A stretch of DNA of 64,000 nucleotides from an uncultured Bacillota bacterium (GTDB lineage: Bacteria; Bacillota_I; Bacilli_A; RF39; UBA660), in the NCBI GenBank assembly GCA_900317975.1, contig ONIZ01000001.1:135479-199478 (forward strand), in the 5' to 3' direction. A program made the translations under genes and the position numbers. This document shows positions 19,098 through 55,200 of the stretch, piece by piece. The notes under the pieces were generated by a model. That model ran no database searches and was not told the DNA's origin. It saw nothing but the letters and a program-made list of their open reading frames with translations. Within the stretch, counting starts at the first letter, position 1. Each line of letters begins with the position of its first letter.

Positions 19098-19115
19098 AAA
19101 AAATACTATATTAAT

Positions 19116-19132
19116 TATATAATTAAAAATAA
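19116..19132 (-). promoter_or_regulatory. motif A, copy 4
   Basis: Exact 17-mer, 18 nt upstream of the ATG at 19097. Confidence 0.5.
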
Positions 19133-19157
19133 TTTTTTATGATGAATTATATCACTT

Positions 19158-19177
19158 TATGAACTATTTTATTATTA
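19158..19177 (+). promoter_or_regulatory. motif B, copy 3
   Basis: tatgaACTATtttattatta, upstream of 19204. Confidence 0.45.
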
Positions 19178-19203
19178 ACTAAAACATTAAATTATAGAAT
19201 AAT

Positions 19204-19503
19204 ATGGAATGGATTAAACTTCATTGGAAAGAGATTGTGATGGTAGTATTAGCTATATTTTGTTTGAATAAATGTACACAATCATGTTCAAGACAGAATG
19301 AACTTAATACACAGCAAATACAAATGTCACGACTTGATTCAATCAATACAGTAATGATAGATTCAATTGCAAAGCTTAATACAATAATAAAAGTATATGA
19401 AGAGAAAGTTTCAGGTCTAAATCAGGCATTAAATATTCAAGATGAAGCCAATAAGAGACTTTCAGAAGCAAAAAAGAACATTAATGTAAATGTTAAGAAA
19501 TAA
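19204..19503 (+). CDS. N-terminally membrane-anchored coiled-coil protein (i-spanin-like architecture, speculative)
   Basis: Transmembrane segment IVMVVLAIFCL, followed by heptad-like sequence. Confidence 0.45.
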   Translation: MEWIKLHWKEIVMVVLAIFCLNKCTQSCSRQNELNTQQIQMSRLDSINTVMIDSIAKLNTIIKVYEEKVSGLNQALNIQDEANKRLSEAKKNINVNVKK

Positions 19504-19751
19504 TGAAAAAAGGAATAAAAATACCATTGATGAATTTGTGGTATGTAATATTGACATTAGTATTCATACTTGCAAAGAATAGTGGAATAATTGATTGGGG
19601 TCCATTATGGATATTGTCCCCTCTTTGGATCCCTTCAGCTATAGCATTATCTATTTGGGGTAGTGTAATGTTATTAAGGATATTACTAGAAATCATAGCA
19701 TTTATTAATTCATTATATAGAAAATATTTGTCAAAGCATAAAATTAAATAA
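19503..19751 (+). CDS. small polytopic membrane protein (holin-like architecture, speculative)
   Basis: 82 aa with two or three hydrophobic helices (LWYVILTLVFILA, WILSPLWIPSAIALSIWGSVMLL). TAATG overlap with the upstream gene. Confidence 0.45.
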   Translation: MKKGIKIPLMNLWYVILTLVFILAKNSGIIDWGPLWILSPLWIPSAIALSIWGSVMLLRILLEIIAFINSLYRKYLSKHKIK

Positions 19752-19754
19752 TTT

Positions 19755-21172: not shown

Positions 21173-21179
21173 ATAATTC

Positions 21180-21413
21180 ATGGATAAGAAAGACAAAAAT
21201 GGACAAGTGATTGAATATGATTCACAACCGTATGGAAATTGTTATTTTCAATATAAAGATATTCGAATAGAAATTGATGAAGATGTTAATTTAATTAGAA
21301 TTATGAAAGGTAATAATGTTATTAAGTATTGGTATGCACAAGATACAATACAAGCATCAAAACTACCAAAGTGTTGTGATATTATTAATGAATATATAAA
21401 AGTATTTGAATAA
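21180..21413 (+). CDS. hypothetical protein
   Basis: 77-aa ORF in the operon. Confidence 0.45.
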   Translation: MDKKDKNGQVIEYDSQPYGNCYFQYKDIRIEIDEDVNLIRIMKGNNVIKYWYAQDTIQASKLPKCCDIINEYIKVFE

Positions 21414-21414
21414 T

Positions 21415-21585
21415 ATGATATACGAAGGAGTTGACAAATTTGAATATAAAGTTCAAAAGATTAGTTTTAGATCTCTTGAAAAGACATTAAATGAATTAGG
21501 ATCGGATGGATGGGAACTAATCATGATAGATGAAGATAATTATATATTTAAGAGGAAGGTTACTGAAATCTTAATTAACGAATAA
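21415..21585 (+). CDS. small hypothetical protein (56 aa, DUF4177-like GWEL motif), below the ORF-track cutoff
   Basis: The ATG at 21415 comes 1 nt after the upstream stop. Translation is MIYEGVDKFEYKVQKISFRSLEKTLNELGSDGWELIMIDEDNYIFKRKVTEILINE. It ends inside the terminator stem. Confidence 0.4.
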   Translation: MIYEGVDKFEYKVQKISFRSLEKTLNELGSDGWELIMIDEDNYIFKRKVTEILINE

Positions 21586-21616
21586 AAAATGGAAGAACTT
21601 AAGTTCTTCCATTTTT
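21585..21616. terminator. bidirectional terminator
   Basis: Perfect 14-bp stem, aaaaatggaagaac (21585..21598) with gttcttccattttt (21603..21616), and loop ttaa. Confidence 0.7.
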
Positions 21617-21620
21617 CTTT

Positions 21621-29070: not shown

Positions 29071-29916
29071 ATGAATAATAGATTTTGTATTGTAATTCCT
29101 GTCTATAAAACAGATTTAAGTATAACAGAGGAATTATCATTTAGAAACTTTATCAATACTTTCAAAAACAAAGACAACAATATTTTCTTCATATGCCCAG
29201 ATGACCTTGATACAACTGCATATGATACTGTCATAAAAAATGAATTGTCTAAGAAAGATAAGTTATTGATAGAAAGAAAGAATTTTGATGCCAAATATTT
29301 CAAAAGTGAATTCACTTATAGTCAGTTATGTGTTAACTATGATTTCTATAGTTCATTTGATGATTATGACTATATGCTTATCTGGCAGTTTGATTGCTAT
29401 CTATTCAATGATAATATTGAAAAATGGTGTGATAAGGGATATGACTATATAGGAGCACCAATCATTTCTGAATATAGTGGATGGAAAAGCAATAATGATA
29501 TTGTATGGAAGCCAAAAGTCGGCAATGGCGGATTAAGCTTAAGAAAGATTAGTACATTCAAAGATGTCACAAATCCAGAAGGAGAATTCTTGACATACTA
29601 TAAGTCAACTTATAATAATAATTTGTTTGAAAAACTTAAGTTTGAAGATGTATATTTCTATAATGTGTTCCGTTATTATTGGGATGCTAATATTCCTTCA
29701 TGGGAAGAAGCTGGTCGATTTGCATTAGATATGAATCCAGAAGTATATGCTAATTTTGTTAATGATAAAGAATTCTTACCTATGGCTTGTCACGCATGGC
29801 CAAAGAATATTAGATTCTGGAAAGACAAAATAAAAGAAATAGACAATAACATAATAGATTATTGTGAAGAAAAATATAAAGAATTTTTTAAATTATATTA
29901 TGGAGAAAAAAAATGA
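29071..29916 (+). CDS. DUF5672-like putative glycosyltransferase
   Basis: YDYIGAPI ... VGNGGLSLRKI resembles the GNGGFSLR signature I associate with DUF5672. Called from memory. Confidence 0.4.
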   Translation: MNNRFCIVIPVYKTDLSITEELSFRNFINTFKNKDNNIFFICPDDLDTTAYDTVIKNELSKKDKLLIERKNFDAKYFKSEFTYSQLCVNYDFYSSFDDYDYMLIWQFDCYLFNDNIEKWCDKGYDYIGAPIISEYSGWKSNNDIVWKPKVGNGGLSLRKISTFKDVTNPEGEFLTYYKSTYNNNLFEKLKFEDVYFYNVFRYYWDANIPSWEEAGRFALDMNPEVYANFVNDKEFLPMACHAWPKNIRFWKDKIKEIDNNIIDYCEEKYKEFFKLYYGEKK

Positions 29917-30754
29917 TGTAAAGATTTGTATTTTATGTTTATGCTCTCATCATCAAATATTTCAATACCAAGTAATGGTAGATAAAAATACATGGATTAA
30001 ACATGCTCAAGAAGAAGGAATTGATGTATATAGATATGAAGGATCAAATAGAAATGAAATTATAGATGATATAATTTATTGTGATTGCGAAGATGATTTT
30101 TGGCATACATATGAAAAAACAATTTGTGCATTTCAGCAATTAGATATTGATAAATATGATTTTGTTGTCCGTACTAATCTTACAACATATATAAATCCAA
30201 AAATATTAATACAATATTGTCAATTCTTAAAAGATAATAATTATAATATTGCTAATGGCTGCTTATGTATAAAAGATAATATTATTAATTATCGTGGTAA
30301 TAGTTTAATATTAGATAATATGGTTTGTCATTATTTATTAGATCATATTCATCCAAATACTGAACATATTCAAGATGATGGAGTATTTCAAGAAGTATTT
30401 AAAAATATAGATAATTTAAAAATTCATTCTGTTCCATTTAGATATTATTGTAAAGAAGAATATTTTAAATATCATCCACAAACTATAAAAGAAATAACTA
30501 AAGAAAATCTTGAAGGAATTGTATTTATTAGTTATAGAATAACAGAAATTAATAAAATAAATACAGATAAATTACATGAAAAATATAGATATATTGAATT
30601 AGGAAGATGTTATGAAATAGATTCAGTATATAATCAATTAGAAAATAATAGTATTAAAGATAATTTTGGTTTAATATATGATGATGCTATTAATAAATTT
30701 AGATCAAATATAAATACTATTATTCAACATAATAATACATTAGTTTATGAATAA
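29900..30754 (+). CDS. hypothetical protein in the glycosyltransferase cluster
   Basis: The ATG at 29900 gives MEKKNDVKICILCL. It overlaps the upstream gene by 17 nt. The track start at 29864 is a GTG. Confidence 0.45.
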   Translation: MEKKNDVKICILCLCSHHQIFQYQVMVDKNTWIKHAQEEGIDVYRYEGSNRNEIIDDIIYCDCEDDFWHTYEKTICAFQQLDIDKYDFVVRTNLTTYINPKILIQYCQFLKDNNYNIANGCLCIKDNIINYRGNSLILDNMVCHYLLDHIHPNTEHIQDDGVFQEVFKNIDNLKIHSVPFRYYCKEEYFKYHPQTIKEITKENLEGIVFISYRITEINKINTDKLHEKYRYIELGRCYEIDSVYNQLENNSIKDNFGLIYDDAINKFRSNINTIIQHNNTLVYE

Positions 30755-36497: not shown

Positions 36498-36962
36498 ATG
36501 AAAATGACAACAAATGATATTGTATTAAGACATAATTTTGTAAGTCAAATACAATTCAAAGATGGTAATTCACAACTTAGTAAAGATCTAAAGATCAAAC
36601 TTATGAGCATGCGTATTGAATACGGAAAGGTACATAAGGAATTTGATAATGATGTTCAAGAATTTACAAAGGGAATTATTTCAGAACGATTTAATGAACT
36701 TCAAAGAAAACAAGATCGTACTGAAGAAGAAAACACAGAATTAAACAACTTGACAGCAGAATATAATGCTATGACAGTTGACTATATCAATAAGCTTGCC
36801 GCTGAAACTCATGAAGTAAAAGAATATGCATTTAATATTGATGAATATTCTGAGATTCTTGAGACTAATTCTTCAAATGATGTAGAAATTAATGGGCAGA
36901 AAATCAAAGCACCAGATTTCTTAGAGGCAATTTATGAGATATTTGTAACAAAAGAGGAGTAG
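36498..36962 (+). CDS. hypothetical coiled-coil protein
   Basis: 154-aa ORF, last in the plus-strand block. Confidence 0.5.
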   Translation: MKMTTNDIVLRHNFVSQIQFKDGNSQLSKDLKIKLMSMRIEYGKVHKEFDNDVQEFTKGIISERFNELQRKQDRTEEENTELNNLTAEYNAMTVDYINKLAAETHEVKEYAFNIDEYSEILETNSSNDVEINGQKIKAPDFLEAIYEIFVTKEE

Positions 36963-36981
36963 TTAACTACTCCTCTTTTTT
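36951..36981. terminator. bidirectional terminator
   Basis: aaagaggagtag (36951..36962) pairs with ctactcctcttt (36967..36978). Loop is ttaa, followed by TTT. Confidence 0.7.
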
Positions 36982-37020: not shown

Positions 37021-37863
37021 TTAACCACCGATTGTTACAGTAAAATATCCTTCTCCAATAATTAGATCTCCATCAGCATTAGAAAGTTTTGTATCTGCTA
37101 AAGTTATATTAGCAGGAGATACGTCAACTAATAAAGTATCAGCAGAGCCTAATGTAGGTGTACCAGCAGGTGTTAATGTTCCAGTAAAAGTATATCTAGT
37201 TGTACCCGATATACTTCCACTAGTTCCAGATGTATATTCCACTAATATAGGACCACCTTGACCAGATGCTCTATATGTTATATATGTAGCAGGTGTATTA
37301 TAATTAATAGCAGTAACATCCCCAAGAGGAGAATACTTGTTACTAAAAGTATTGTAATTTATTTTATGCATAGTTAAAATAATCCATTGATGATTTTCGG
37401 CATTAAAAAACGGTAAATATGGAAATACAACATAAATATATGTCATGTATCCTTCATTAAATGCAAATGTTGATCCATCAGGTTTAATATGATCAAAATT
37501 AACAAATGTATAAGGAATAAATTCATATCCGTGTGTTGTCAATAAGTCTTGATATTGAGATACTGCTTCTGATCTAGATGTTGCAGTTATGATCCAACCC
37601 CATTGAACTCCTATAGCCCATTTAAAATTATTAATTAAATAACCTTGATATCTATTTGTTGCATTAGTTGATCTTAGAAATTGAATTCCAATCTTACATA
37701 CATATAAATTATTTATATTACACCATTGAACTTGGTATGATCTGCTAAATCCTCTTCCACTTAATGTTATTGTTTCAATTGAATTATTTGCAGGTCTAGT
37801 AGACTTAGGTAATAATATTCCACTTTCTCCATAATAAAAACTTAGTAAAGTTGCTGAAGACAT
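37021..37863 (-). CDS. fibre-operon protein. Its frame stays open upstream to 38010, so it may be the C-terminal part of a -1 frameshift fusion.
   Basis: 280-aa ORF. The 49 codons upstream of its first ATG contain no stop and no alternative start (see finding at 37861..38013). Confidence 0.55.
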   Translation of the reverse strand: MSSATLLSFYYGESGILLPKSTRPANNSIETITLSGRGFSRSYQVQWCNINNLYVCKIGIQFLRSTNATNRYQGYLINNFKWAIGVQWGWIITATSRSEAVSQYQDLLTTHGYEFIPYTFVNFDHIKPDGSTFAFNEGYMTYIYVVFPYLPFFNAENHQWIILTMHKINYNTFSNKYSPLGDVTAINYNTPATYITYRASGQGGPILVEYTSGTSGSISGTTRYTFTGTLTPAGTPTLGSADTLLVDVSPANITLADTKLSNADGDLIIGEGYFTVTIGG

Positions 37864-37988
37864 ATTTGATGATGCTGTTAACCAAGAAATATTTGATTGT
37901 GATCCACCAACACGTGTAGATGTTAAATCAACAGTATGTTGAAATATACAACTACCATTATGATAAACGGGGATTACTATATTATAAT

Positions 37989-38645
37989 TTAAATAACCGC
38001 CCCCCCGTAATTATAATACATTGTTGAATTACTATTATTAGATGTATAAGTCATCTTTATTATAGGTATATCTGTAGCAGAAGAGTTTGACATATTACCA
38101 TGATACCGTAGAGTTATAGCTCCTCTATAATATGGACCTAATGAAAATTGTCCTTGTGAATAGAAGAGCCCATTCTTTGGATTCATTTCATAATAATCTG
38201 TACTATTTGTATTTAATGGCTCTCGATTAAATGGATATAAATACAAACCACCAGCCTCAAAAATATTACCAAACCTATCAGCTCCTGAACTAGAGTCATC
38301 AATTGATAATCCTCCTGTATTATCTATATAGATATCAGCATCAATAAAACCTTGTGTCTGGAATGCGGTATCTCGCCAAGAATATAATTCTCCATCTTTT
38401 ATTAATATATTCTTGCTACTATCATAAAAATCACTAGTACTTAGTGGATCACCAGTATGATGGCAAACAAAAAAATGAACTTCATTTATTCCAGTAAAAT
38501 CAGCTTCATTAGCTTCAAAATATTTTCTTGGTATATATCTGTTAGAATCTGCAGAAACTTTAAATACTTTATTTGAAACTCCAGTATAATTTGTCATTAT
38601 TCTACCAATATCACTACCGGTTAAATATTTATCTGTTATTGCCAT
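37989..38645 (-). CDS. fibre-operon protein that ends just after a G7 tract
   Basis: 218-aa ORF ending ...YYNYGGAVI. It overlaps the giant fibre gene by 17 nt. Confidence 0.55.
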   Translation of the reverse strand: MAITDKYLTGSDIGRIMTNYTGVSNKVFKVSADSNRYIPRKYFEANEADFTGINEVHFFVCHHTGDPLSTSDFYDSSKNILIKDGELYSWRDTAFQTQGFIDADIYIDNTGGLSIDDSSSGADRFGNIFEAGGLYLYPFNREPLNTNSTDYYEMNPKNGLFYSQGQFSLGPYYRGAITLRYHGNMSNSSATDIPIIKMTYTSNNSNSTMYYNYGGAVI

Positions 38646-41600
38646 ATATTAATGTTTCTAAATAACTAATTTTCTTATCTTGTTCTTTTACCTTTTCAAT
38701 TAATGCACCTACTAATTTAGATAATGCTGAATTATAGTTAACTGAATATGTATAACTTTCATAACTATAGTCTACTGCTTCAGGTATAACATATGATAGT
38801 TCTTGAGCAATAAAACCTGTAGCATGCTTATTAGAAGAAATCCAGTCAAATTCTTTTACAATGTTAGAATAAGAACTAAATATATTATTTATGAATTCAT
38901 CAGATATTGGTTTTATGTTTTTCTTCAATTTCTTATCTGATGCTGAATATACATCATTACCCTTAAAATATGGTGCACCAGCATAAATAGATAGAATTGT
39001 ACCTGAACTTGAACCTTGACTTGTGCTACCTAATAAATAATATTGGGTACTTGATGAAGCCGTTATAATATATATTTGATCTGCTTCAGATGCCAGTCCA
39101 TTAAAATAATTTGCAGTAATTGTACCTGTTGATGGATTTGCTTTAATACTAGAACAAAAACGAGTTTCATCAGTAATTGTTGCAGTTGCAGTTGTATACT
39201 TGAACAACATTGGATAATTATAGTTTCCTGTTGTTTGCCATTGTTTTACTTTAGGCGGGATCCAAGCAAATGTTCCAGCTGTATATGATAGCATATATGA
39301 ACTATTTGCATCATTTTTGGCTGGTGCTGTTATAAAGCCTGTTGCACCTGCGCCTGTTTGATATAATAATTGATTCTTAGCACCTCCTGATATATTTGTA
39401 GCATTTGTAGCATTTGTTGCATTTGTTGCATTAACTGCATTAGTAGCACTTGTAGCAGATGAAGCTAAAGCATCTAAAGTACAATTTAATGTTCCCGTTA
39501 AGTTAACTGTATTAGAACCAATTGTAGTTGTTGTTGGTAATGCAGTAGCACCTGCAGAAGTAGATGAATATAGATTAAAATAATTATATCCATTACCACC
39601 CCATGAGCCTCCATCAATAAACTTAAATGCTAATGAATTATATCGGCCGGTTAATTTTGCCCATACTTCAAATGTCACAGAATCAGATCCATTAAAGTAT
39701 AATAGTTTAAAATTATCTAATGGTAATCCACTTGAAAGCGCATGGAATTTTATAGCAGACGCAGCATATTGATTAGAACTACTATTACATTGTACATATA
39801 ATATTCCTGATATAGTTGATTGTCTTCCACATGATACATGTAATTTTATCCATCTATAATTAGTTCCTGTTAAGTTAATATCTGCAATCTTATAATAATC
39901 ATCTGCAGCTGCAGTAGAATTATATACTACTGAATATAATTTAGTCACTGTTGGCACTCCACTGGATAAATATATAGGCTGTACACTATTACCAACAGAA
40001 GCTGTTCCAAGTTTAGTTGCAGTTGTAGCAGTACCTAAGAATGATGGGGCTGTAATGCTTCCCTTAACCCATAGATTACCAGTATTAGAGCTTAACTCCA
40101 TCATATTTGAGATAGCTGAACCAGCAGCATTAGCAGAGCTTTCCCATATCCATCCATAACCAGCAGCATTTTCTATAATACTTCTCATAGCCCATGATGT
40201 TACAACTGTTCCAGCTGGATGTGCCGCACCACCAGGAGACTTATCTTTATTAGACATATATTCAATCCATGTGTTATATGCTCTATTATAGAAATGTATA
40301 CCATACGATGTTTTATGATATTGAGTATCTAAATATAATGCTCCTCTTATATAGCTATTGCCATTTACATCTAATGTTTCTGCTGGTACACGTATTCCTA
40401 CACCAAGTTTTGGATTAATTGAAACTCCTTGTCCTGCATTTACTAAATCAATATATACTTCATCACCACCTCCAGAGGTATTATTACTAATACGCATATC
40501 TAATGATTCATTACCAGAAGTTGCCGCTGAACCTATTCTAAAATTAACAGAATCATTATATGCACGTGTTATTTGAATTGGCCATTGAGTAGCATTACCT
40601 CCAAATATTCCAGTATAAGCATAGACATTCTTCCATTTTAATGTAGATGATCCAATATTATAAGTATTATTTATTGCTGGTGTAATAGAATTATAGTTAT
40701 CAAATACAGTTTTCCATACTCCCCATGTTCCACTGCTTTGACCTCTTATTTGCATCATTCTACCAGATGCATTTGCAGATGTTGGTAAGAAAAGCTGAGC
40801 ATCCCATCCAGCATTATTATCCCAGTTAAAATGTAATATATGACCATCAGACAATGGCTTATTAGAAGTTGTAGAACTAGTTACTTTAAATGATATTATA
40901 CTTCCATCTCCTAATGTTGTCTTATTAATATCTGTTGTTGAGTATCGATCTTCATATAAACTTAGTTTTGTAGCATTGGTTGCATTAGCAGCATTATAAT
41001 TAACAGCAGGATTTTCTTTTGTTATTTCTACGGTTCCACTTAATGTTGTTTCAAGACCAATTTCCCATCCATTATTCCATTTATCATAATCATCTCCACC
41101 ATGTCCAACATGAATATCTTTTAGCCAAACTCTTACATAAGACCATGCAGTATTAGTTTCTCCAATCCAGACAATATTTCTTGTACCTCCACTATCATGA
41201 CCAAATCTAACTGTTAAATTTCCATAATCATTCAAGTCATCTCTTAGTGAATATACACTAGTATTTTTCCATAGACCATCAGTATATACATATCCATTAA
41301 TATGATATGTTGAAGATCTTGAGGTGACATAATTATATATTTCAACAGTAAACTTCATCATTGTTGCTTGTTTATATCCAGTAATTGGAAGTTTAATAGC
41401 AATTGCACCACTACCACTATTTGGTCCTTTAAAATAATGGGCATTTGGATAAACAACCGTATGATTATCTCCGACACTTAATGCATATGAAGTTCCTTCA
41501 ACATGAGATGTACCAGTTACATATAGATTATATGATGGTGTTGTTCCTGTATCTATAGCAGTATTAACATAAAGTGATTGTTTTTTCATTTGTACTGTTG

Positions 41601-44600
41601 GTACTTCAATTGCAGAACTATACCAGTTACTACTATCTGTTAAATCATTACCGCATTTAAATATGAAACTTGTAATAGCATTCTTATTAGCAAAAACCAA
41701 TGCTTCATTACCATTAGTCATATATTCAATTTTTGAATTATAGTTTGCATTACCGGGTCTGAAATTAATTGCTACTTTATTAGGTGTAAATGTCAATAGA
41801 CCTTCATTTGTAGTTCCAAGATTTGTGTAAGAAACACCAAGATAATTTGTATTAGTAATACCAACTACAGCAAGTGTTTTAGAACCCGGATTCCATGTAA
41901 AATAATCAAATGATTTATATAATTGATTTGCTGTTGAAGTTGTTTGGGTTCTTGTATTTGCCCATACTATAGGATAATTAGTATTTGAAGTAATATTATG
42001 GTTTACTATAACATTAGTAGCATTTGTAGCATTTAATGATGTTGTAACATCCTCACTAACAAATTGTGTTTCATCAGCAGGAATAGTAGTAAATATATAA
42101 GTATTATCTACAGTATTACTACTACTTGTAAATAAATTCCAATTATCACTATGAGCTGCCCAAGAACCACTGTCTAATAATCGAATTCTTGCGTGATACC
42201 ATTTTGCAGGAACTTTATAATATAATTTACATATCAAACTATTTGCAGTAACTTTCGTTGTTAATATAAAATCGTCAGGAGTTAAATGTAAATCTTTTAC
42301 AATCCATTTAGCATGTGTGGTAGAAGTGTTAATAGTACTAGCACCAGATTCAACTCTAGCTTGTACATATAATATTCCTCTAGCCCTTTCATAATAACCC
42401 GATACTAAAAATGTTGCAGTAATATTTCTAGTACTTGTATTATTTTCTATTTTTGCTTCAGCCATTAAATGATATGGATTAGTAACACCAGCACCACCAT
42501 CATATCCATTTCCGTAAATAAGATATTTTGCAAATGTAGAAGTACCAGTTAAATCACCCTTGAATGTTCCATTTAATATTGTCTCATCCATCCAAAGTGA
42601 TGGTATTTTCTCTATAGAATTAAGAGTCTTATAATATGTTAAATATGTTGCAGTACCTGTAGCTACTCCTGATTTTAATTCATACGTCATTTCTGTAGGT
42701 ACACCGGCTGCTAGATATATTCCTTTAGTAGCAGATCCTTTATTAGCTGTTCCAAGTTTAGTTGCTGTATCGGCATTACCTTTTAATGCACCTTGGAAAC
42801 AAGTAGCATATGCTGTAGCAGTTGCTGGATTAATTTTAACATTAGTATTATAATATGTAGTATCAGCCGTACCAGATGTTCCATTTGCGGTTTTTCTGAC
42901 TAATATAGGCATTGCATAGTTATATGTTGTTGATGTTTGTATTACTTTAGTGTCGGTATTAGAATCAGATGGCATTGTCATTGTTCTTGTACTCCAACTG
43001 GTTATATGACCATTTGCATCATATGTTATAGTTGGTATAGTAAATGTTCCGCCAAATGATAACGTCGCAGTAGCACTACCCGCAGCAGTACCGGCTGTTA
43101 TATTATTAGTATGTCCAAATTTATTTGATGCTAATGTTATTCCCTTTTCTGCCCCATAAGGAGATAATCCTGTTATATCGCTAGCAGTAACATTAGTACT
43201 TCCCATAATATGTCCTTGAGTATCATATGATATTTTATAAAAACCAGATGCTTTTGTACCACTAAACAACGTGTTATGTGATATAGTAAGATCATTATTA
43301 GATGAAGATACAGTTATACTGGTGCCATTTTTTACATTCATTGCTCCGGTATCAGTTGCAGTTCCTTTCCATGCTGTGCCATTAACTGTAATATTACGCC
43401 ATGTGTTATTATCTGTTGGTGTTATCCAAGTTGGGGCTTTATTTGGTCCTTCACTTTTTAGAATTTGGCCTACTGTACCGGATACTATAGGAGCATATGC
43501 AATTATTGTTGTACCACTTTTAGCTGCTCCATTTAATGTTACATTAGTACCTCCTGCATATGCTGTACATTGCGCAACTCTTCCATAAGGACTTAAATAT
43601 ATTGGAGTAAAAGCATTACCAAGAGCATTATTATTTCCTGCATGAACAGCATACATGTCTGCATTAAAACTTGGTAAATAGAATGTCTTATTATATCCAA
43701 CATTATACTGAATTACATTTGTATAGTTAGCTGTTGTACCATATAATCTTAATACACCTCGAGCATTATTAAAACCATTTTGTACAGGTGTATTATCATT
43801 AGATACATTTGCTGTTTCAACATTTACAATATTATTTCCTAATTCTAATAATCCTTCTCCTACTGTTCCCTTCTTAGATGCTGTTGATGCAGTACCTAAT
43901 ACACTAATGGTCATTTTACCATATTGATTATTCTTTCCATAAACAACAAATCCACTTGTATTAACAGTTCCCATATTACTTAAAAACCATGAAGAAGTTT
44001 CAAAAGTATTAGGAGAAAATGTTGTTCCATCTATATAAAGTCTTGGTTTGATAGTTCTTGAAGCATATTCATAATCGTCATGATTAGTATTTGTTGCTCC
44101 TGTAATTGTAAGTCTACCTTTATAGTTATTAATAATTCTTGCAGAAAAATCTAGACCAGTATATGCATAGTGAAAATCTATATATGGAGTATCATGAGAT
44201 AATTCTATTGATCCAATATTGATGAATGTTCCTTTTGCTGCACTATTTGTTGCTGTATAATTTGTGGCACCAACTAATAATGATGTTGTAAAAAATCCAG
44301 ATTTAAATCTAAAATTAGTAAGTCCAATTGTATAAGCATCATTAGTTTGGGCAGTTATATTTTGAAATACACTTAATCCTTGTACTTGAAATTTTCCACT
44401 TTGAGCTGGAACCGCAGTACCATTTATATTGATTGTTGATCCATTTGTAAATATACCTGTCCCAGGACTGATTGCATTAACCGCACTATAGAAAGCTATT
44501 CTATTTGCACTAGCACTATTATTTATTGTAGAATTAATTATATAAGATATTTGAGTAGCTCGTCCATTTTCAGCTACATATATTGGTCTGTTTGTTGCTC

Positions 44601-47226
44601 CTATAATATTATTATTTGGACCATGTATAGCATACATATCTCCATTAGCACTAAAATTAGGTAAATAAAAGTTTTTATCAGCAGTTGTTGCTTGAGAATA
44701 TATATTTGTATAATGATTATTTGTACTATATAATCTTATATTACCTCTTGCATTATGTGCACCACCATCAGTTGTGTTTGTTCTATCAACAAATGATATA
44801 TTATTTCCTAATTCAAGTGTTGCAATACCTATAGCTCCATTTGTGCCTGGAGTAACAATATTATTATCATCATCTAATACATTTACAGTTGTTTTTGTAC
44901 CAAGTTGCTGAATATAAAACTTGGCATATTTTGAATTGTAGGAATACAAATGAAATCCGTATTGTCCTCCTAAGGCATTGGTGTTAAGACCTTGAGGAAT
45001 ATTTATTAATACTGAAGTAGCTCCTTCAATATGACTACTTGAATATAAGACATTATCAGAGACAAGTCTTGGGCGTATAGTTCTATTATTATATATAAGT
45101 GTTCCAATGGAATTTCCTGTAACACCAGTAAATGTAATTCTTCCAGCAGAATCATTTATTAATCTTGCAGAATAATTACCTTTATTTACATTATTATATA
45201 GAAAATCAATATATGGAGTTACATATGATAGTTCAATTCTACCAGTTCCAATATATGTTCCCTGTACAGCACCATTTGTAGTAATTTCTCCAGTAGTAGC
45301 ATTTCCAGTAACATTAAATCCGGTACTGCCAACTAATATTCCAGTACTATAATAAGAAAATGACCATCTATTAGCTGACGTTCCTAATGTATAAGCATCA
45401 TTTACTGCAGGATATACATTTCCTTTTATACTCCAATGATTAGATATATTACTAATAAAAGCATCTCCATTATTAGAACCATTTTTTGTTATAAATAAAT
45501 TACCATTATTATTTCCAATAAACCAACTTGTTGTCGAAGTTCCAATATTGCCTATATTATCATTACCACATAAAAGTATTGTTGCCCAATTATTAATCAT
45601 ATGTAAACGGATTCCTTGATTATAATTATTTGCTTGAGCTGTTGGAAATATATTTAATGAACCGTTATTTGTAAAATATGCTATTTTTTTAGCTCCAGTA
45701 GCAGTATAGAAATAAAATTGATCTAAATCATCCGTACCTACAGACCAATTCTTATTATTATTTGATGAATAATTAATACATGCATAAGGTTTATTTGTAT
45801 CTACAGACTTAATACCTAATATATCTCCATTACCATTTATTTGTAATTTTTTAATATTAGGATTCCATGTCAAATAACTATGCGTTTTATATAATTGATT
45901 ACTTTGTGCATTATTAGTGTTTGCTTCATTAGACCACACTATTGGATAATTGGTATTTAATGAATAACTATTAGTTACAATAACATTGGTTACATTATCT
46001 GCTGTTCCTTTTAGCCAGCCTTGAAAATAAGTAGCATATGCTGTAGCAGTTGCTGGATTAACTGTAATACCTGAATTTCTACCAACATAATTAGCAGTAT
46101 TATTTGGAGATTCTGAATATGTAAATAATAATTGATATGTTGATTTATTTCCTGTTCTTTCATATTGAATGACCTTTTCATCAGTATTGGCATCTGTAAC
46201 TGTATCCCAAACAAATTTACTTCCATCATATTTAAGATATGTATTAGAAGATGGCGCATCAATAAATTTAGTTATATTAGGGGCTGATTGGTAAGCTATC
46301 TTATTTGCATCACCACCAGCTATATTTGTAGCTTTACTTGCAGTAGTAGCAGTGTTTGCACTATTTGCACTATTTGCATGATTAGCACTATTAGCATTAT
46401 TTGCATTAATAGCATAAGGTACAGTTACATTAGAACTTTTTATTGTATAATTACCAATTTGAATATATGAATAAACACTATTGCCTGATATCCCAATATA
46501 AGATGTTTGTAATAAATTACTGGCATGAAATCCATCTAACTTATCAGCATTATCAGCATTAGTAGCATGATTAGCATTATTTGCATCAGTAGCATAAGGT
46601 ACAGTTACATTAGAACTTTTTATTCCTGCTCCATTACCAATTTTAACATATGAATAAATACTATTACCTGATACACCAATATAAGATGTTTGTAATAAAT
46701 TACTGGCATGAAATCCATCTAACTTATCAGCATTATCAGCATTAGTAGCATAATTAGCGCTATTTGCATTACCAGCATAAGGTACAGTTATATTAGAACT
46801 TTTTATTGTCTTATTACCAATTTGAATATATGAATAAACATTATTGCCTGACACACCAATATAAGATGTTTGTAATAAAGTATTGGCATGAAATCCATCT
46901 ACTGTATCAGCATCAGTAGCATAAGGTACAGTTATATTACTACTCCTTCCTGCCCCATTGCCAATTTGAACATATGAATAAATATTATTACCTGACACGC
47001 CAATATAAGATGTTTGTAATAAAGTATTGGCGTGAAATCCATCTAACTTATCCGCATTATCAGCATTAATAGCAAACAATGCTTGATTAGCAGTATTAGC
47101 ACTATTGGCACTATTTACATTTAGTAAACTTTCTTTTTTATAACCTCCTCCTCCTAACAAAACATAGGAATTATTTGCACCTCCCGGTATACCACCATGA
47201 TAAGAACCATCTTTGAATTTTCCCAT
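38629..47226 (-). CDS. giant tail fibre (2865 aa) with a C-terminal S74 intramolecular chaperone autoproteolysis domain
   Basis: The last approximately 103 aa are SDKKLKKNIKPISDEF ... TGFIAQELSYVIPEAV ... KKISYLETLI, the endosialidase-chaperone signature (about 38632..38940). There are four N-terminal repeats and several internal large duplications. Confidence 0.85.
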   Translation of the reverse strand: MGKFKDGSYHGGIPGGANNSYVLLGGGGYKKESLLNVNSANSANTANQALFAINADNADKLDGFHANTLLQTSYIGVSGNNIYSYVQIGNGAGRSSNITVPYATDADTVDGFHANTLLQTSYIGVSGNNVYSYIQIGNKTIKSSNITVPYAGNANSANYATNADNADKLDGFHASNLLQTSYIGVSGNSIYSYVKIGNGAGIKSSNVTVPYATDANNANHATNADNADKLDGFHASNLLQTSYIGISGNSVYSYIQIGNYTIKSSNVTVPYAINANNANSANHANSANSANTATTASKATNIAGGDANKIAYQSAPNITKFIDAPSSNTYLKYDGSKFVWDTVTDANTDEKVIQYERTGNKSTYQLLFTYSESPNNTANYVGRNSGITVNPATATAYATYFQGWLKGTADNVTNVIVTNSYSLNTNYPIVWSNEANTNNAQSNQLYKTHSYLTWNPNIKKLQINGNGDILGIKSVDTNKPYACINYSSNNNKNWSVGTDDLDQFYFYTATGAKKIAYFTNNGSLNIFPTAQANNYNQGIRLHMINNWATILLCGNDNIGNIGTSTTSWFIGNNNGNLFITKNGSNNGDAFISNISNHWSIKGNVYPAVNDAYTLGTSANRWSFSYYSTGILVGSTGFNVTGNATTGEITTNGAVQGTYIGTGRIELSYVTPYIDFLYNNVNKGNYSARLINDSAGRITFTGVTGNSIGTLIYNNRTIRPRLVSDNVLYSSSHIEGATSVLINIPQGLNTNALGGQYGFHLYSYNSKYAKFYIQQLGTKTTVNVLDDDNNIVTPGTNGAIGIATLELGNNISFVDRTNTTDGGAHNARGNIRLYSTNNHYTNIYSQATTADKNFYLPNFSANGDMYAIHGPNNNIIGATNRPIYVAENGRATQISYIINSTINNSASANRIAFYSAVNAISPGTGIFTNGSTININGTAVPAQSGKFQVQGLSVFQNITAQTNDAYTIGLTNFRFKSGFFTTSLLVGATNYTATNSAAKGTFINIGSIELSHDTPYIDFHYAYTGLDFSARIINNYKGRLTITGATNTNHDDYEYASRTIKPRLYIDGTTFSPNTFETSSWFLSNMGTVNTSGFVVYGKNNQYGKMTISVLGTASTASKKGTVGEGLLELGNNIVNVETANVSNDNTPVQNGFNNARGVLRLYGTTANYTNVIQYNVGYNKTFYLPSFNADMYAVHAGNNNALGNAFTPIYLSPYGRVAQCTAYAGGTNVTLNGAAKSGTTIIAYAPIVSGTVGQILKSEGPNKAPTWITPTDNNTWRNITVNGTAWKGTATDTGAMNVKNGTSITVSSSNNDLTISHNTLFSGTKASGFYKISYDTQGHIMGSTNVTASDITGLSPYGAEKGITLASNKFGHTNNITAGTAAGSATATLSFGGTFTIPTITYDANGHITSWSTRTMTMPSDSNTDTKVIQTSTTYNYAMPILVRKTANGTSGTADTTYYNTNVKINPATATAYATCFQGALKGNADTATKLGTANKGSATKGIYLAAGVPTEMTYELKSGVATGTATYLTYYKTLNSIEKIPSLWMDETILNGTFKGDLTGTSTFAKYLIYGNGYDGGAGVTNPYHLMAEAKIENNTSTRNITATFLVSGYYERARGILYVQARVESGASTINTSTTHAKWIVKDLHLTPDDFILTTKVTANSLICKLYYKVPAKWYHARIRLLDSGSWAAHSDNWNLFTSSSNTVDNTYIFTTIPADETQFVSEDVTTSLNATNATNVIVNHNITSNTNYPIVWANTRTQTTSTANQLYKSFDYFTWNPGSKTLAVVGITNTNYLGVSYTNLGTTNEGLLTFTPNKVAINFRPGNANYNSKIEYMTNGNEALVFANKNAITSFIFKCGNDLTDSSNWYSSAIEVPTVQMKKQSLYVNTAIDTGTTPSYNLYVTGTSHVEGTSYALSVGDNHTVVYPNAHYFKGPNSGSGAIAIKLPITGYKQATMMKFTVEIYNYVTSRSSTYHINGYVYTDGLWKNTSVYSLRDDLNDYGNLTVRFGHDSGGTRNIVWIGETNTAWSYVRVWLKDIHVGHGGDDYDKWNNGWEIGLETTLSGTVEITKENPAVNYNAANATNATKLSLYEDRYSTTDINKTTLGDGSIISFKVTSSTTSNKPLSDGHILHFNWDNNAGWDAQLFLPTSANASGRMMQIRGQSSGTWGVWKTVFDNYNSITPAINNTYNIGSSTLKWKNVYAYTGIFGGNATQWPIQITRAYNDSVNFRIGSAATSGNESLDMRISNNTSGGGDEVYIDLVNAGQGVSINPKLGVGIRVPAETLDVNGNSYIRGALYLDTQYHKTSYGIHFYNRAYNTWIEYMSNKDKSPGGAAHPAGTVVTSWAMRSIIENAAGYGWIWESSANAAGSAISNMMELSSNTGNLWVKGSITAPSFLGTATTATKLGTASVGNSVQPIYLSSGVPTVTKLYSVVYNSTAAADDYYKIADINLTGTNYRWIKLHVSCGRQSTISGILYVQCNSSSNQYAASAIKFHALSSGLPLDNFKLLYFNGSDSVTFEVWAKLTGRYNSLAFKFIDGGSWGGNGYNYFNLYSSTSAGATALPTTTTIGSNTVNLTGTLNCTLDALASSATSATNAVNATNATNATNATNISGGAKNQLLYQTGAGATGFITAPAKNDANSSYMLSYTAGTFAWIPPKVKQWQTTGNYNYPMLFKYTTATATITDETRFCSSIKANPSTGTITANYFNGLASEADQIYIITASSSTQYYLLGSTSQGSSSGTILSIYAGAPYFKGNDVYSASDKKLKKNIKPISDEFINNIFSSYSNIVKEFDWISSNKHATGFIAQELSYVIPEAVDYSYESYTYSVNYNSALSKLVGALIEKVKEQDKKISYLETLIYGNNR
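46411..47064 (-). repeat. four tandem coding repeats of 48 to 61 aa at the fibre N-terminus
   Basis: NADKLDGFHA(N/S)(T/N)LLQTSYIG(V/I)SGNxxYSY(V/I)(Q/K)IGN ... SSN(I/V)TVPYA occurs four times. The repeats are obvious at DNA level too. Confidence 0.85.
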
Positions 47227-49257: not shown

Positions 49258-52200
49258 TTAGTGTTTGCCCTGGCCATTTGCTTTATTTTTAATATTGTAC
49301 TTATTTGCATCTTGTGCTTGTTTCGCGCTATCAGGGGTTGTTCCACCTTGTCCGTTTGGGTTATTTGGAGGAACTACCTTAATTGGATTACCTGGTGTGC
49401 TTCCTCCTGTATCTCCTCCTTCATCTCCATTATCAGGGTTTGGTGTATCATCAGGTGCTTGTGATTTGACCACAATATTCAATGGTTGCTGTATAAGTGT
49501 TTGAACATTCTTGATAGCTTCTGTAATCTTGCTATGACGACGGATTTGGATTTCATCTGCCTTATTAATTGTTTCTTTAGATTCTTCAAGTCTATTTGCA
49601 AGTTCATTCAATACATAACTTAATCTATTAGCTAATGCATCTGTCAAATTATCTAAGTTACCCATCTTCTTAGCAAGTTCATTCAATTCTCTTACTAATT
49701 GAGTTAAAGCATTTGTTCTTCGAAGATCTATACTATTTATAGTCTTTACATATTTTGCTAATAGATCAGTATTTGCTTTGAATGTATTAGTGCTCTTTTG
49801 ACTAGACATTGAACTGTATATTTGTTCAATTGATATTCTCAATGTAGATGCATTCATCAATGCCATTGGATTGAATCTAATTACAGTATCAATATATTTT
49901 CCTAATGATTCACTAACAATATCTAGATTTGTCTTGCCCCATGATGTCTCTATATCTATGTCAAATACCTTTGCTAAATTTGTTAAGTTTTGTTGTAATG
50001 CAGATATAATGGTTGGTTCTATTTTCTTAGAATTTTCCATTGTTACCACTATTTGGTCAATTGCTGCTTTAAAATTATTTATAGAGTCAATTGTATTTTT
50101 ATTGACCGATAACTTAATACCAGTCAACAATGTATTTAATGTAGCATTAACAGTATTAATATCTATCAATACATTCTTTAATAATGAATTATCTGCCTCC
50201 CATGTTCTAAATAATGTCAATATTGGATCATAGAATTTTTCTAATATGTCAGTTATGATATTGGTTCCCTTTTTATTATCTTTAATGTAATTAATCTTTG
50301 CCAAATCAATCTTCCCAGTATAAGAATCAATTATTTCTGCAGATATATCAATTATTTCTTGTACAGTATCAGCAACATCTTGTAAAGAATTGACTATTAT
50401 TTGATTGCTTTCTTCATTTTGCTTACGAACATTTTCATTATATAGTTGTTTAATTGTTTGATCTGCTGATTGTCCAGATATAAGATCTTGTAGTTTTACA
50501 AATGAAATGAAAATATCATGTATATCAGCAAATAGTCCTATTGTAGATTCAATATTTGCTTTTGATTGTTGTTTATATTTGAATAACTGAGATATAACAT
50601 CTGTATTTTCAAGTATTGGTTTGAAACTATTGATGACTGACTTTATTGTTGTTGTTATTTCAGTAATTGCTGACTGTATTTGAGCAGATGTATTTATAAG
50701 ATTCTTTAATGTGACATCATCAATTGCTATTGCCTTTTCATTCTTTGCGGTATCTTCATCAAATATTGTCAATAGACTTGATATTATGTGTCTTGCTTTT
50801 GATTTTGCTTGTGTTATTTGATCTTCTTTAAATGAAATATATCCTTTAGCATTTCCATCTTTGTCATAGCCATTAGCAATCTTCATTTCTGCTATTTCTT
50901 TTAATGTGTTTGCAGATTTTTTGATGATTTTGTTGATTGAATCATTTACATGAAGTATGCCTGGTAATTTTTGATCAATTTGTTGCTTTTGTAAAGTATC
51001 GTATGATGATATTAAGCTTTTTCCTATAGAAGTTATCATATCAGGAATTGTTTTCTTAATATTGTCAATAACAGTTTTGATATTTATCTTTTCATATTCT
51101 ATGACTTGGCCCTGATCATTTATTTTCTTAGGTATTTGGGCTGTTCCAATCTTTACAACAGAATCAACAATATTTGCAACTATTTTAGTAATACCAGATA
51201 TTGAAGAAACAGCTTGACCAAATAATGAGTCTTTACCTTCTTTGAACAAATGCGGGTTCTTTTCTACAACACCTATTAATGTAGTTGATACTGAAGTAAC
51301 TATTTGTTTTATTGTTGTTGATAAAGCTGTTTGTATTTCAGTCATATTAAGTTTTTCCCATTTATCTGGTTGACCAGTCTTAGGATCATAATGAGATGGA
51401 ACTAATGCATTAGCAATCTTTACAATTGCATCGGTAGTATTACTTACAATCTTAGATATACCACTAACAGAATCAACAACTTCCTTAAGATTACCTGTTG
51501 GTTGATTATCAGCAGTAAATAAGAATTGCTTATATGGATTTTTACTAAATGTATCTACTAATGCTTTTCCGATACCAATTGCAATTGCAGCAACATTAAT
51601 AGCAGCATTTTTGTAATCATCCTCTTTCATTTCTCTGAATTCAATTGGCTTACCTGTCTTAGGATCCCATTTATAAGGTATTTGATTATTTGCTAACTTT
51701 ATTATTCCATCAGCCATTCCTGAAACAAGTTCATTAACTGGCATAATAGATTCTAATACAGTCTTCATTGTACCATCAGTAAATCTTTCATCACCAGCAT
51801 ATTTTACTAATGAATCTAATATGCTTGTAATGATAGAACCAATAGCTTCTCCTGATGCTCTAAAATCTTCCGGTGTTACATCAACATAACTAATTGGATG
51901 TCCTTTATCATCCCAATCATTAGGAACTTGTAGTTTTGCTATATCTTTTATTCCCTTACCGACATTTGCTATTAGTTCAGATACTTTGAATGATGTTTCT
52001 ACAACTGTTCCTATTTTTGAATTTTTCTTTCCTATTCCAAATACACCATCATTACCATCAAATAATGAGCCTACTGTTATGCCATCTTCTCCATCAATTG
52101 GTTTATAATATAGGTTAGCTAATGAAGAAATAACTGCAGTCAATATATTTCCTACGCTTTTGCCCATATCATTAAAATCATTACTATTTAATGTTTTATA

Positions 52201-55200
52201 TTCAGTTGGGTGTCCCTTATCATCCCAATCTATAGGAATTTGTAGTTTTGCAATATCTTTGATGCCTTGTCCAACATTTCCAATTAATTCAGAAATTCTA
52301 AATGACAAATCAATAACTTGAGATATCTTTGATTTTGTAGCACCTAATCCAAATAATCCATTAGAATCTCCAGCAAGTAAATTATCCCATTCTGCTTTTG
52401 ATATACCTGAATTATTATCATTCAAAAATTCACCACTGGCAATCTTTCCTAATGTAGTAAACATTGTTGTGAGTACTGTTGTAATGTTTGTTCCTGCATC
52501 AGTAAAATCTTTTTTCCTTAATTGTCTAAATGATATTGGTTTTCCTTGATCATTCCATTCAATAGGTATTTGTAGTTGAGCAATATTTCCAACAGCTTCA
52601 CCAACAGAACTTATTACTTTACTAACCTTCATTGACAAATTCATTATTCTAGATAATGGATCTTCACCAATCAATCCTAATACAAATGAATTTGCAAAAC
52701 TAAATCCAGAACCTTCTAATTCAGTATAAACCTTATTAAGTTCTTTAACCATTGTTGTCAATATTGTTCCAACATGCTGACCAGCTAAATCAAAATCAGT
52801 TTCTCGTAATTGTCTATATCTAACAATATTTCCTTTTTCATCCCATTCAGCTGGGATTTGAAGTTTTGCTATTTCATAAATTGATTTTCCAACTGTTCCT
52901 GTGATATATGCTATCTTTCTTGATATTGACATTAAGTAAAGAAGTTTCATTTCCATCTTACCTGCACCAACAACTTTACCAATTGCTTTTCCAATCCAAT
53001 TATTACCAACAGCATTAGCAATTTCGCTATCTGATGGCATTGAGACTTTATTTGGAATATTCATGAAGTTTTCAATATTTGAAGATATTGTATCTATTCC
53101 AGATTTTAGATCAATGTTTTGTATTGACTTAACTGCTTCTGCCATCATTGAGACAGTATCTGTTATTCCTCTTATAGTTCTTCTAATAGGTATTACACTA
53201 AATGCGGTTGCTACAGCAATAGGAGCAATTTTAGATATTCCTTCAAACAATTTGAGCATTGAACCAGCCTTAGGATCTTTATTTGTAACAGTCAAAGACA
53301 ATTTATTGATACTATCTGTTATAGTATTTCCATGTTTCTTCATGATGTCATTAACATAAGCAATAGAACTACCATAGATGAACAGTATTTCACCCATAGC
53401 TATTAATGTAGCTCCACCTGCCGCAACTGGAATACCGATTAATGGATTTGCTACAAGTGAACCAATTGCCCAGAAGAATGCCCCATAAGCTCCAACAGAA
53501 GCAACAAATAAAGCCATGTTAGCAAAAAATTCTCCAAAACTTATTTCATTGAAAAGACTATTTAGATAGAATAATGAACTGCCATATATTGCAAGAGTGA
53601 GACTCATAAGAATAAGTATACCATTAGCAAGTAGCATATCTGTTTTGTCTATGCCTTTAGCTGCTAATGACATTAATTTAAGTGTACCAACCATTATAAG
53701 TTCCATAAGGCCAACCTTAGCAACCGTATCAAATCCTATTTTCATTTGATCAATCAACCAAACTACTCCGCTAAATACTCCTAATGATAGACTTATTTCG
53801 CCAATTATTATTGATGCTTCTCTAACTTCCTTTTCTTTTAATGATATCTTAGATTTTCCTGTTAACAACTCATAGAATTTACCTAAAGCAAACATTAATG
53901 CTGTCATGACTGCAACTTTTACAAGAACCAATGCTTCTGTAGGATCCTCAAATGGGAACATCTCATCAATAGCTTTTACAACACCAGCAAATATAAGTAA
54001 TGATCCAGATATGAGAGCTAATGTTTTTGCTCCTTCTTGTACATCCTTCTGGTGTTCATCAAGTGTCTTCATTATAGCTATTATTGACCATGTAAATCCT
54101 GCTAATAAAGCAGCATAGCCACCAACAACTAATGGTCCATATTGACTCATAAATGTCGCACCACTTAAGATGATGAAATGCATAGCACCAACAAATAGCA
54201 TGAATCCCATAAGTCCTGATCCCTTGGTTGCTGAAGTAAGAGATCCCGCTATGCCACCTTTACTTATTCCCATTACAGATAAAGTCTTGATTGCCTGAAT
54301 AGCAGCAATTGGAATTAGCATCATATCAACAAAGGCAGTAATAAGACCAGCATAAAGAATTGCAGATCCCCAGGCATTAGCAGTCTTCATATATGCTGTA
54401 CCTGTCAATAGAATACCATGCATTACTGCAACAAACAAGGAGAATGGTTTAAGACTATCTAAAGCCCTTTTATCAAAACCATCTGTTATTCTTTTAGAAG
54501 CTAATCCCATACCAGCAATAAATCCATCAAATACTGCCGCGTATTCAGCACCAGCTAGTACTCCGTATTTCTTTGTAAACAATATACCTGTTGTCAATAT
54601 ACCATGCATTGTTGCTAAGAATATTGAGAACGGTTTGAGACTATCTAATGTTTTCTTGTTAAATAATTCAATAATTGTTTCGGATACTTTACCCATGTAT
54701 TTAATGAATCCTAACAATACAGTAGCATATTCAATAGCAGCCAATGCTCCAAATTTCTTTATGAATGTTGCCCCCATTACTAAGCATCCTGTACAAACAG
54801 CAAGGAATAGACTAAATTGCTCCATTTGAGCTGCAGTAGAAGATTTAAGTAATGAATTGATTGGCTTTGTTGCAGCAATAACACCAACAATAAATAATGC
54901 TAATAGTTTTGTATAGTCTAAAGCATATTTTGCCATCATGCCGTTCTTCATTGACATAAACAATGACCCTACTAATAGGCATGTTGTAGTGGTGAACATA
55001 AATAATGCAAATGTCTTTAATGATGCTAATGCCGTTCCCTTTACAAGATTAAACAATAAGAATGGAGCAATTACACCAGCTTCAAATAGCATCAATAATC
55101 CTGTAAATTCTAATGCCGCTTTAACATATTTGCCTCCCTTCAATTCCATGAACAAAGCACCAACTAGTAAAATGATTGTACAAGATACAATTACAGAATT

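Follow-up and report, generated by a model that had tools for sequence, protein, structure and literature searches.

A unique G7 tract at a frame break beside a tail-fibre gene of an uncultivated megaphage: a candidate slippage switch

The DNA analysed here is a window of 64,000 bases (contig ONIZ01000001.1 of assembly GCA_900317975.1, positions 135,479 to 199,478), and the shuffles, lists of open reading frames (ORFs) and run counts reported below were taken over this window. On its minus strand two consecutive ORFs, coding for 218 and 280 amino acids (aa), are broken apart at a run of seven G residues (G7); the features of this locus are collected in Table 1. The upstream ORF ends AAT TAC GGG GGG GCG GTT ATT TAA, and in DNA the surroundings of the run can be written TATTATAATTAC-Gn-CGGTTATTTAAAT. 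Within the 64,000 bases this is the only run of at least six G or C residues, the next longest being one C5 at 54771. A sequence-only reading of the same DNA, made before this analysis, had given the coordinates and 3′ end of the upstream ORF and the position of the corresponding C7 on the plus strand, all of which were recovered when the minus strand was read directly. Its further claims, that no other G or C run of 6 nucleotides (nt) or more exists, that the downstream frame is open through 49 start-less codons before its first ATG, and that the two ORFs lie 125 nt apart while the neighbour in the operon overlaps by 17 nt, also held.

Table 1. Coordinates of the features at the frame break and of the elements around it
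Feature	Coordinates	Strand	Remarks
Upstream ORF	37989..38645	minus	218 aa; product of the sequenced G7 genotype; from direct reading and the ORF listing
G7 homopolymer, candidate slip site	38000..38006	minus (C7 on plus)	zero frame GGG GGG G(CG)
Downstream ORF	37021..37863	minus	280 aa from its first ATG at 37863
Start-less, stop-free leader	37864..38010	minus	49 codons in the frame of the downstream ORF; annotated gap plus overlap
Stretch with both frames open	37989..38010	minus	22 nt, contains G7; read directly from the sequence
Putative reconstructed single gene	37021..38645	minus	541 codons with G8 or a -1 slip; orphan protein
Predicted tail-fibre or spike gene	38629..47226	minus	2865 aa; directly upstream, 17-nt overlap
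Terminator-like hairpin	36950..36979		13 bp; between the end of the gene at 37021 and convergent 36498..36962
CCCCGU element	37967..37972	minus	can pair with ACGGGG, located in the tract 30 nt earlier in the mRNA
Perfect 10-nt A/T-only inverted repeat (TATTATAATT, 19 nt, AATTATAATA)	37980..38018	minus	one arm on each side of the G run plus stop codon

The frame of the downstream ORF is open from 38010, and its leader, which reads LRGGGYLNYNIVIPVYHNGSCIFQHTVDLTSTRVGGSQSNISWLTASSN, contains no stop codon and none of ATG, GTG or TTG. This -1 frame is bounded on its 5′ side by a TAA at 38013-38011, and the zero frame ends at the TAA at 37991-37989, so that any shift of frame fusing the two ORFs must fall within the 22 nt from 37989 to 38010, where the G7 lies. 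One extra G, or an equivalent -1 slip, gives ...MYYNYGGGGYLNYNIV... in silico and a product of 541 aa; the earlier reading had predicted just such a fusion, at about 540 aa. When tract lengths from G4 to G12 were translated in silico, G5, G8 and G11 gave full-length products (540-542 aa) and G4, G6, G7, G9, G10 and G12 gave truncated ones (217-222 aa). The junction peptide of the fused product would be ...MYYNYGGGGYLNYNIVIPVYHNGSCIFQHTVDLTSTR and the leader-derived peptide, running across Met-262, VGGSQSNISWLTASSNMSSATLLSFYYGESGILLPK. In the fused protein the Gly run is placed between Tyr/Asn-rich stretches (YYNY-GGGG-YLNYN), a position that, to judge from the residues around it, would resemble that of an inter-domain linker.

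The 125-nt gap (37864-37988) is coding sequence and not a spacer. It is counted as such because of the length of the leader, its codon usage, the composition of its third codon positions and its G+C content (GC). With 49 codons the leader is the longest found among the 59 ORFs of at least 100 aa, those next in length having 33, 27 and 25 codons, and only 2% of its shuffles are free of stop codons. Its codon-usage log-odds, calculated with a model trained on the other genes, fell at the 17th percentile of the in-frame distribution, a score that none of the off-frame windows reached, and was more coding-like than expected both under a stop-free composition null (P = 0.002) and among the leader's own stop-free shuffles (P = 0.0007). 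Third positions in the leader (A.37, C.06, G.06, T.51) have the same composition as in both flanking ORFs. The GC of the gap is 0.296, close to the 0.305 of these ORFs, whereas the other intergenic regions of at least 84 nt (n = 15) range from 0.08 to 0.26 and all lie below it. The sequence-only reading had described the gap as untranslated for the case that no slip occurs; the length given there is correct, and a non-coding status is contradicted by the gene-like codon usage, third positions and GC.

The signals at translation starts point in the same direction. Genes in the window have AT-rich leaders (GC 0.14) and almost no Shine-Dalgarno (SD) sequences; a position weight matrix was built on true starts compared with internal ATGs, and a second test scored the context alone. 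With the matrix, the ATG at 37863 scored -8.9, as compared with +3.3 ± 5.0 for true starts and -7.5 ± 4.8 for internal ATGs, and ranked second lowest among 48 starts. With context alone its score was -10.2 (true starts, +7.1 ± 3.8), and the best leader codon taken as a start reached no more than +0.6. GC upstream of this ATG is 0.32 instead of the 0.14 seen at true starts. The ATG of the 218-aa ORF, on the other hand, has a strong start context (+9.2). The only start with a lower score than 37863, that at 35484, sits 6 nt upstream of the start used in a public 327-aa gene call and may be mis-called; its gene is exceptional in carrying AGAGGAG upstream. Window-wide, the 25-nt regions upstream of starts often carry TATATA-like motifs. 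The resemblance of these SD-less, AT-rich starts to Bacteroidota-type initiation hints, by analogy, at the host group.

It appears, from the sequence context, that the 280-aa ORF has no start of its own, and most likely it is the C-terminal part of the protein that begins in the 218-aa ORF. That the two ORFs make up one protein, as had been proposed, is supported by the coding-like gap and by the internal-methionine context of the ATG at 37863. We consider it likely that a single gene occupies 37021-38645 and that its frame is interrupted by the G run.

When synonymous codons were shuffled across all genes of the window, 0.124 G or C runs of at least seven were expected, and simple arithmetic from these shuffles puts the chance of such a run in one given 22-nt frame overlap at about 5e-5. 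The codons that form the tract are themselves uncommon: among Gly codons GGG has a share of 4.4%, among Ala codons GCG has one of 3.0%, few sense codons are rarer than GCG (1.58 per 1000), and GGGGGG is used in one of 66 Gly-Gly dicodons, solely at this tract. Given the rarity of GGG and GCG and the single GGGGGG dicodon, GGGGGGGCG is not called for by the protein sequence in this genome; and since three rare codons (GGG GGG GCG) follow one another, the run appears to have been selected as a nucleotide sequence. Codon rarity and the expectation of 0.124 together characterize a tract kept against codon preference, as is typical for contingency loci. Runs of 5-6 G or C are scarcer in the window than the shuffles predict (1 observed, about 4.5 expected), a mild and non-significant sign of avoidance against which the G7 stands out more. 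A causal link connects the G7 run with the break in the frame.

The exact 218-aa protein was found on 7 public contigs and the exact 280-aa protein on 5 (NCBI, ENA and Logan), the longest contig carrying exact products being 410,268 bp. Four other assemblies are 100% identical at the locus, G7 included: ERZ1029110 (k87), Logan ERR2027895, ERZ28614149 (STEW19 scaffold) and ERZ27280377 (k141). All contigs represent one clone (99.995-100% identity, 1 mismatch in about 20 kb). Its origin may be the rumen, to judge from the names of the records and from projects PRJEB21624 and PRJEB31266, to which these accessions probably belong and which are connected with work on cattle rumen. Exact look-up in 15 billion proteins returned none of the products expected from G5, G6, G8, G9, G10 and G11 tracts. 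Searches for relatives of the fused 541-aa protein were likewise negative: no homologue of it or of its halves was detected in a word-index search of 5.8 billion clusters, by tblastn among phage records, in PHROGs or Pfam, or in scans of IMG/VR, JGI metagenomes and GTDB genomes, and exhaustive HMMER searching of 1.84 billion representatives recovered nothing beyond the two proteins of the window. The DNA of the region and of 24 kb of the window had no match among phage records, and relatives sought in IMG/VR via the neighbouring genes were not found either.

The gene directly upstream of the locus encodes a 2865-aa protein in which Pfam Peptidase_S74 (PF13884) was matched over residues 2763-2818 (E = 7.9e-7; 29.7 bits, the curated cut-off being 22). 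Because of this C-terminal intramolecular chaperone domain, the 2865-aa protein is taken to be a tail fibre or spike. The hairpin that follows the 280-aa ORF makes the broken gene the last one of the fibre operon. Its position after the fibre gene fits, without proving, a distal or receptor-binding role; of the designation 'fibre-distal protein' used in the sequence-only reading, the fibre neighbour is supported by the Peptidase_S74 domain, and the distal role is compatible with the context. The 2865-aa ORF is one of three giant minus-strand ORFs within 25 kb, together with 49258-57555 (2765 aa) and 59234-63940 (at least 1568 aa), and the only one of the three with a Pfam match. Its N-terminal part contains tandem units of about 180 nt (about 60 aa) that are about 88% identical (46367-47057).

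We tentatively favour, while giving it somewhat less than an even chance, the explanation that the tract is an on/off switch operated by slippage in DNA replication and that the assemblies have caught it in the truncated OFF state. The locus would then encode one orphan protein of about 541 codons, made together with the 2865-aa tail fibre, and the G7 run that breaks its frame would be kept for its slipperiness. In the G7 genotype ribosomes would halt three codons past the run and only the 218-aa N-terminal part would be made; the C-terminal 325 residues would be produced only after a net gain of one G (to G8, although G5 or G11 would also work). Such a gain would most likely occur at DNA replication, which would make the tract a heritable and reversible contingency locus for a distal module, and all available assemblies would show the OFF length. 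We infer a rate of change in run length that would be useful, and the switching would presumably be adaptive and the protein a fibre tip or receptor-binding part. G or C homopolymers on an AT-rich background are a textbook motif of contingency loci. Here, a G homopolymer in the usual size range (about seven or more) lies inside the coding sequence 37989..38645, and a change of one base in its length toggles between truncated and full-length products in silico.

Several observations weigh against such a switch. Every contig has G7 and no length variant was found, though all the contigs are one clone. The resources searched contain no homologue against which long-term maintenance of the tract could be judged; the single-sequence AlphaFold2 model of the fused protein was uninformative as to a domain spanning the junction (mean pLDDT 32). 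Campylobacter phages carry several polyG tracts; here a single tract was found, although the 64-kb window contains three giant fibre-like genes, and about 7 kb of additional flank yielded no further one. Moreover, G7 is at the short end among phase-variable tracts and it is located 40% into the gene, away from the 5′ end.

Other explanations have to be weighed against a replication switch, and one of them is an error of sequencing or assembly, the real genome having G8 and an ordinary intact gene. Homopolymers are classic sites of indel errors and the frame break falls exactly on the run. An assembly error is nevertheless unlikely since G7 recurs, with 100% identical flanks, in four further assemblies made with different tools, as implied by their names (k87, k141, scaffold, Logan), even though some of them possibly share reads or platform. 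That a run of 8 is not collapsed by k-mer assemblers whose k far exceeds 8 also counts against an error. As 7 and 5 contigs carry the exact G7 products and the 15 billion proteins include none from a G8 tract, the homopolymer error that the sequence-only reading had listed among its explanations is disfavoured, and we regard it as extremely unlikely. It is also very unlikely, in our estimation, that there are two separate genes here, the 280-aa protein starting at the ATG at 37863 or at a rare non-ATG codon of the leader, with the open leader and the G run being a coincidence or an old relic. Gene callers applied to the public contigs do give exactly these two proteins, and gaps of at least 100 nt separate 7 of the 38 same-strand gene pairs in the window. 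However, that ATG has the context of an internal codon and the leader offers nothing start-like; in codon usage and GC the gap is coding, in which it differs from all other intergenic regions; none of the other 59 ORFs listed has so long a leader; and the estimated chance of a unique G7 falling in the overlap is that given above. Ribosome bypassing of the T4 gene 60 type was considered as well and rejected, the 49-codon leader being stop-free and coding-like as a unit, which a bypassed gap would not need to be.

The evidence for a single gene applies equally to an explanation missing from the list of the sequence-only reading, a plain deletion, recent and non-adaptive, that turned G8 into G7 and became fixed in the clone, with the distal part of the protein decaying or dispensable. 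All sequences being one clone with G7 agrees with this, as does the lack of a second such tract in the region examined, and by our estimate the leader would remain stop-free through a few percent of neutral divergence. It would be necessary, however, that a G8 made of the rarest Gly codons (GGG GGG GGC) had arisen by chance, for which arithmetic gives about 1.4e-4, and that the deletion struck there although about 160 A or T runs of at least 6 in the window offer far more targets for frameshifts; the broken gene has no stop and its codon bias is intact. Such a G run would also revert often, which blurs the line between deletion and switch, and we consider a plain deletion unlikely. Similarly doubtful is programmed recoding on an invariant G7, by which a fixed minority of 541-aa protein would be made beside the 218-aa form. 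This could proceed by a -1 slip in the P site (tRNA-Gly moving from G4G5G6 to G3G4G5, with the rare GCG awaiting in the A site) or by insertion of one G by RNA polymerase. It shares its frame geometry and coding evidence with the switch (across the junction the -1 frame is open and coding, and a start for the downstream part is absent); in addition, the tRNA would re-pair perfectly in moving from GGG to GGG, the codon in the zero-frame A site is rare (GCG, with the frequency given above), the zero frame meets a stop within 3 codons, all assemblies have the same G7 as a programmed site predicts, and precedents exist in the +1 frameshift of MTP-TpeX (PMC4759559) and the -1 frameshift of tail assembly chaperones (PMC12846349). 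Against it, an in-register X XXY YYZ heptamer is lacking, since only one tRNA could re-pair on C GGG GGG, and likewise only one on G GGG GCG, and there is no structure 5-9 nt downstream (the 70 nt past the tract fold with -8.7 kcal/mol, z = -0.4). The only strong pairing uses the G run itself, which serves as a stem arm when the 131-nt region is folded (z = -2.7). The minimum-energy structure predicted has the CCCCGU element paired to the G run, with the zero-frame stop enclosed between them, a geometry that differs from that of a classical frameshift stimulator. An SD-like upstream stimulator for -1 frameshifting is absent too, the genes having no SD sequences; no Rfam family was matched, and no relatives were found for an analysis of conservation, which is the usual proof. 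Bacterial and phage sites of transcriptional slippage are mostly A or T runs of 8-9 or more, and G7 is both shorter and made of another base. A literature search on G7 slippery sites in phages yielded nothing useful. These readings are not fully exclusive of one another, as a G7 slips somewhat in replication, transcription and translation alike.

The inverted repeat around the tract (arms at 37980-37989 and 38009-38018) is one of 18 such repeats in the 64 kb, and the chance that one of them brackets the tract is about 0.01. It is probably a by-product of the Tyr/Asn codons found on both sides; less probably, it may contribute to polymerase stalling. If the 19 nt separating the arms are inverted, the outcome, followed by hand, keeps the frame and still ends at a TAG, and inversion was rejected as a route to fusion.

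If the tract truly switches as proposed, homopolymer-based on/off control of host-recognition parts, so far shown in Campylobacter phages and very recently in T-even phages, would reach a new setting: a megaphage of about 410 kb that is uncultivated, comes probably from gut or rumen and has orphan fibre proteins. A systematic annotation error would also be exposed, since such genes are divided by gene callers into two 'hypothetical proteins' and a gap is wrongly placed between them. Were recoding to be true instead, the locus would represent a new type of slip signal, lacking both heptamer and downstream stimulator, in phage genes without SD sequences; it would set a fixed ratio of 218-aa to 541-aa protein, adding a 325-aa distal module on a giant tail fibre, and would be the first recoded fibre-tip protein in a megaphage. 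The switch remains a candidate based on a single clone; the class of mechanism is already known, and what is novel is its setting in a phage with orphan proteins.

Elsewhere in the window, the genes at 7398-8102 and 8086-8676 on the plus strand are tandem thymidylate synthase paralogues with a 17-nt overlap. They were considered as a possible split gene, which could have pointed to error-prone sequence or to recoding in general, and this was rejected on the grounds that both cover the same part of the Thymidylat_synt profile. A nucleotide kinase of the DNMK type (2808-3836; PF21448 in the public gene calls of a matching contig) and a C5 cytosine methylase (13769-15109) are located near this pair, and several glycosyltransferases are present in the window (11079, 28059 and 35484). 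The synthases, kinase, methylase and glycosyltransferases may form a DNA-hypermodification module. Two long intergenic regions, 19098-19754 (657 nt) and 21173-21620 (448 nt), have a relatively high GC (0.25), and three runs of G4 or C4 occur inside the first of them (19597-19660). The window yielded no tRNA and no Rfam family. A run of A8 at 29906-29913 is situated 3 nt before the stop codon of a DUF5672 gene (29071..29916), inside its overlap with 29864..30754 (+1 frame). As a second slip site it was rejected, the DUF5672 match being complete before the run, which is probably an ordinary Lys-rich end. An alternative genetic code was also rejected: the stop codons are TAA (40), TGA (6) and TAG (5), and the coding density under the standard code is 92%.

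The host is probably other than Campylobacter, and the start sites lack SD sequences. The nearest parallel to the proposed switch is found in Campylobacter phages, for which hypermutable polyG tracts leading to phase-variable expression of receptor-binding proteins have been described (Sorensen 2021, Cell Rep 35:109214, as cited in PMC10579305 and PMC10877375). In both cases a G homopolymer is present in a gene of the tail-fibre region, the phage genome is AT-rich and a change of one base in tract length toggles between truncated and full-length products, here in silico. The present locus differs in having a single, short G7 that is G7 in all assemblies of the one clone, and in belonging to an unrelated, uncultivated megaphage of about 410 kb whose proteins have no homologues. 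Homopolymeric contingency loci were also reported in T2, T4 and other phages (Gomez, Barrick and Waters, bioRxiv 10.1101/2025.10.21.683753), and mutants at a 9-base A run of T2 were measured there at a frequency of about 7e-4. Those loci share with ours a single-base repeat of at least 6 in phage coding sequence and are subject to reversible frameshifts by polymerase slippage; they differ in being A runs in an enzyme gene (agt) with reversion seen experimentally, whereas here a G run in a gene of the structural region is known from sequence alone.

Among recoded phage genes, comparison can be made with the 936-group lactococcal phage protein MTP-TpeX, which is extended by +1 frameshifting (PMC4759559, where SPP1 and phage A2 are also cited), and with the lambda-type tail assembly chaperone G/GT, made by -1 frameshifting (PMC12846349). 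As in these systems, the short product ends just past the shift site, the start-less downstream ORF constitutes an additional C-terminal module, and that ORF is usually annotated as a separate gene or a gap. Their sites are shifty stops or X XXY YYZ and poly-T sequences conserved across many relatives, in contrast to a G7 for which no canonical heptamer, stimulator or relatives were found; the extension (325 aa) here also exceeds the base protein. Finally, phase-variable polyG or polyC genes of AT-rich bacteria such as Campylobacter, Helicobacter and Haemophilus (e.g. PMC3025981, PMC2831843) are genes for surface structures or restriction-modification and usually have tracts of at least 8 near the 5′ end, as compared with seven Gs in the middle of a viral gene. 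They resemble the present locus in having an intragenic G or C run on an AT-rich background where codon usage avoids it, and in that two of every three states of tract length are OFF.

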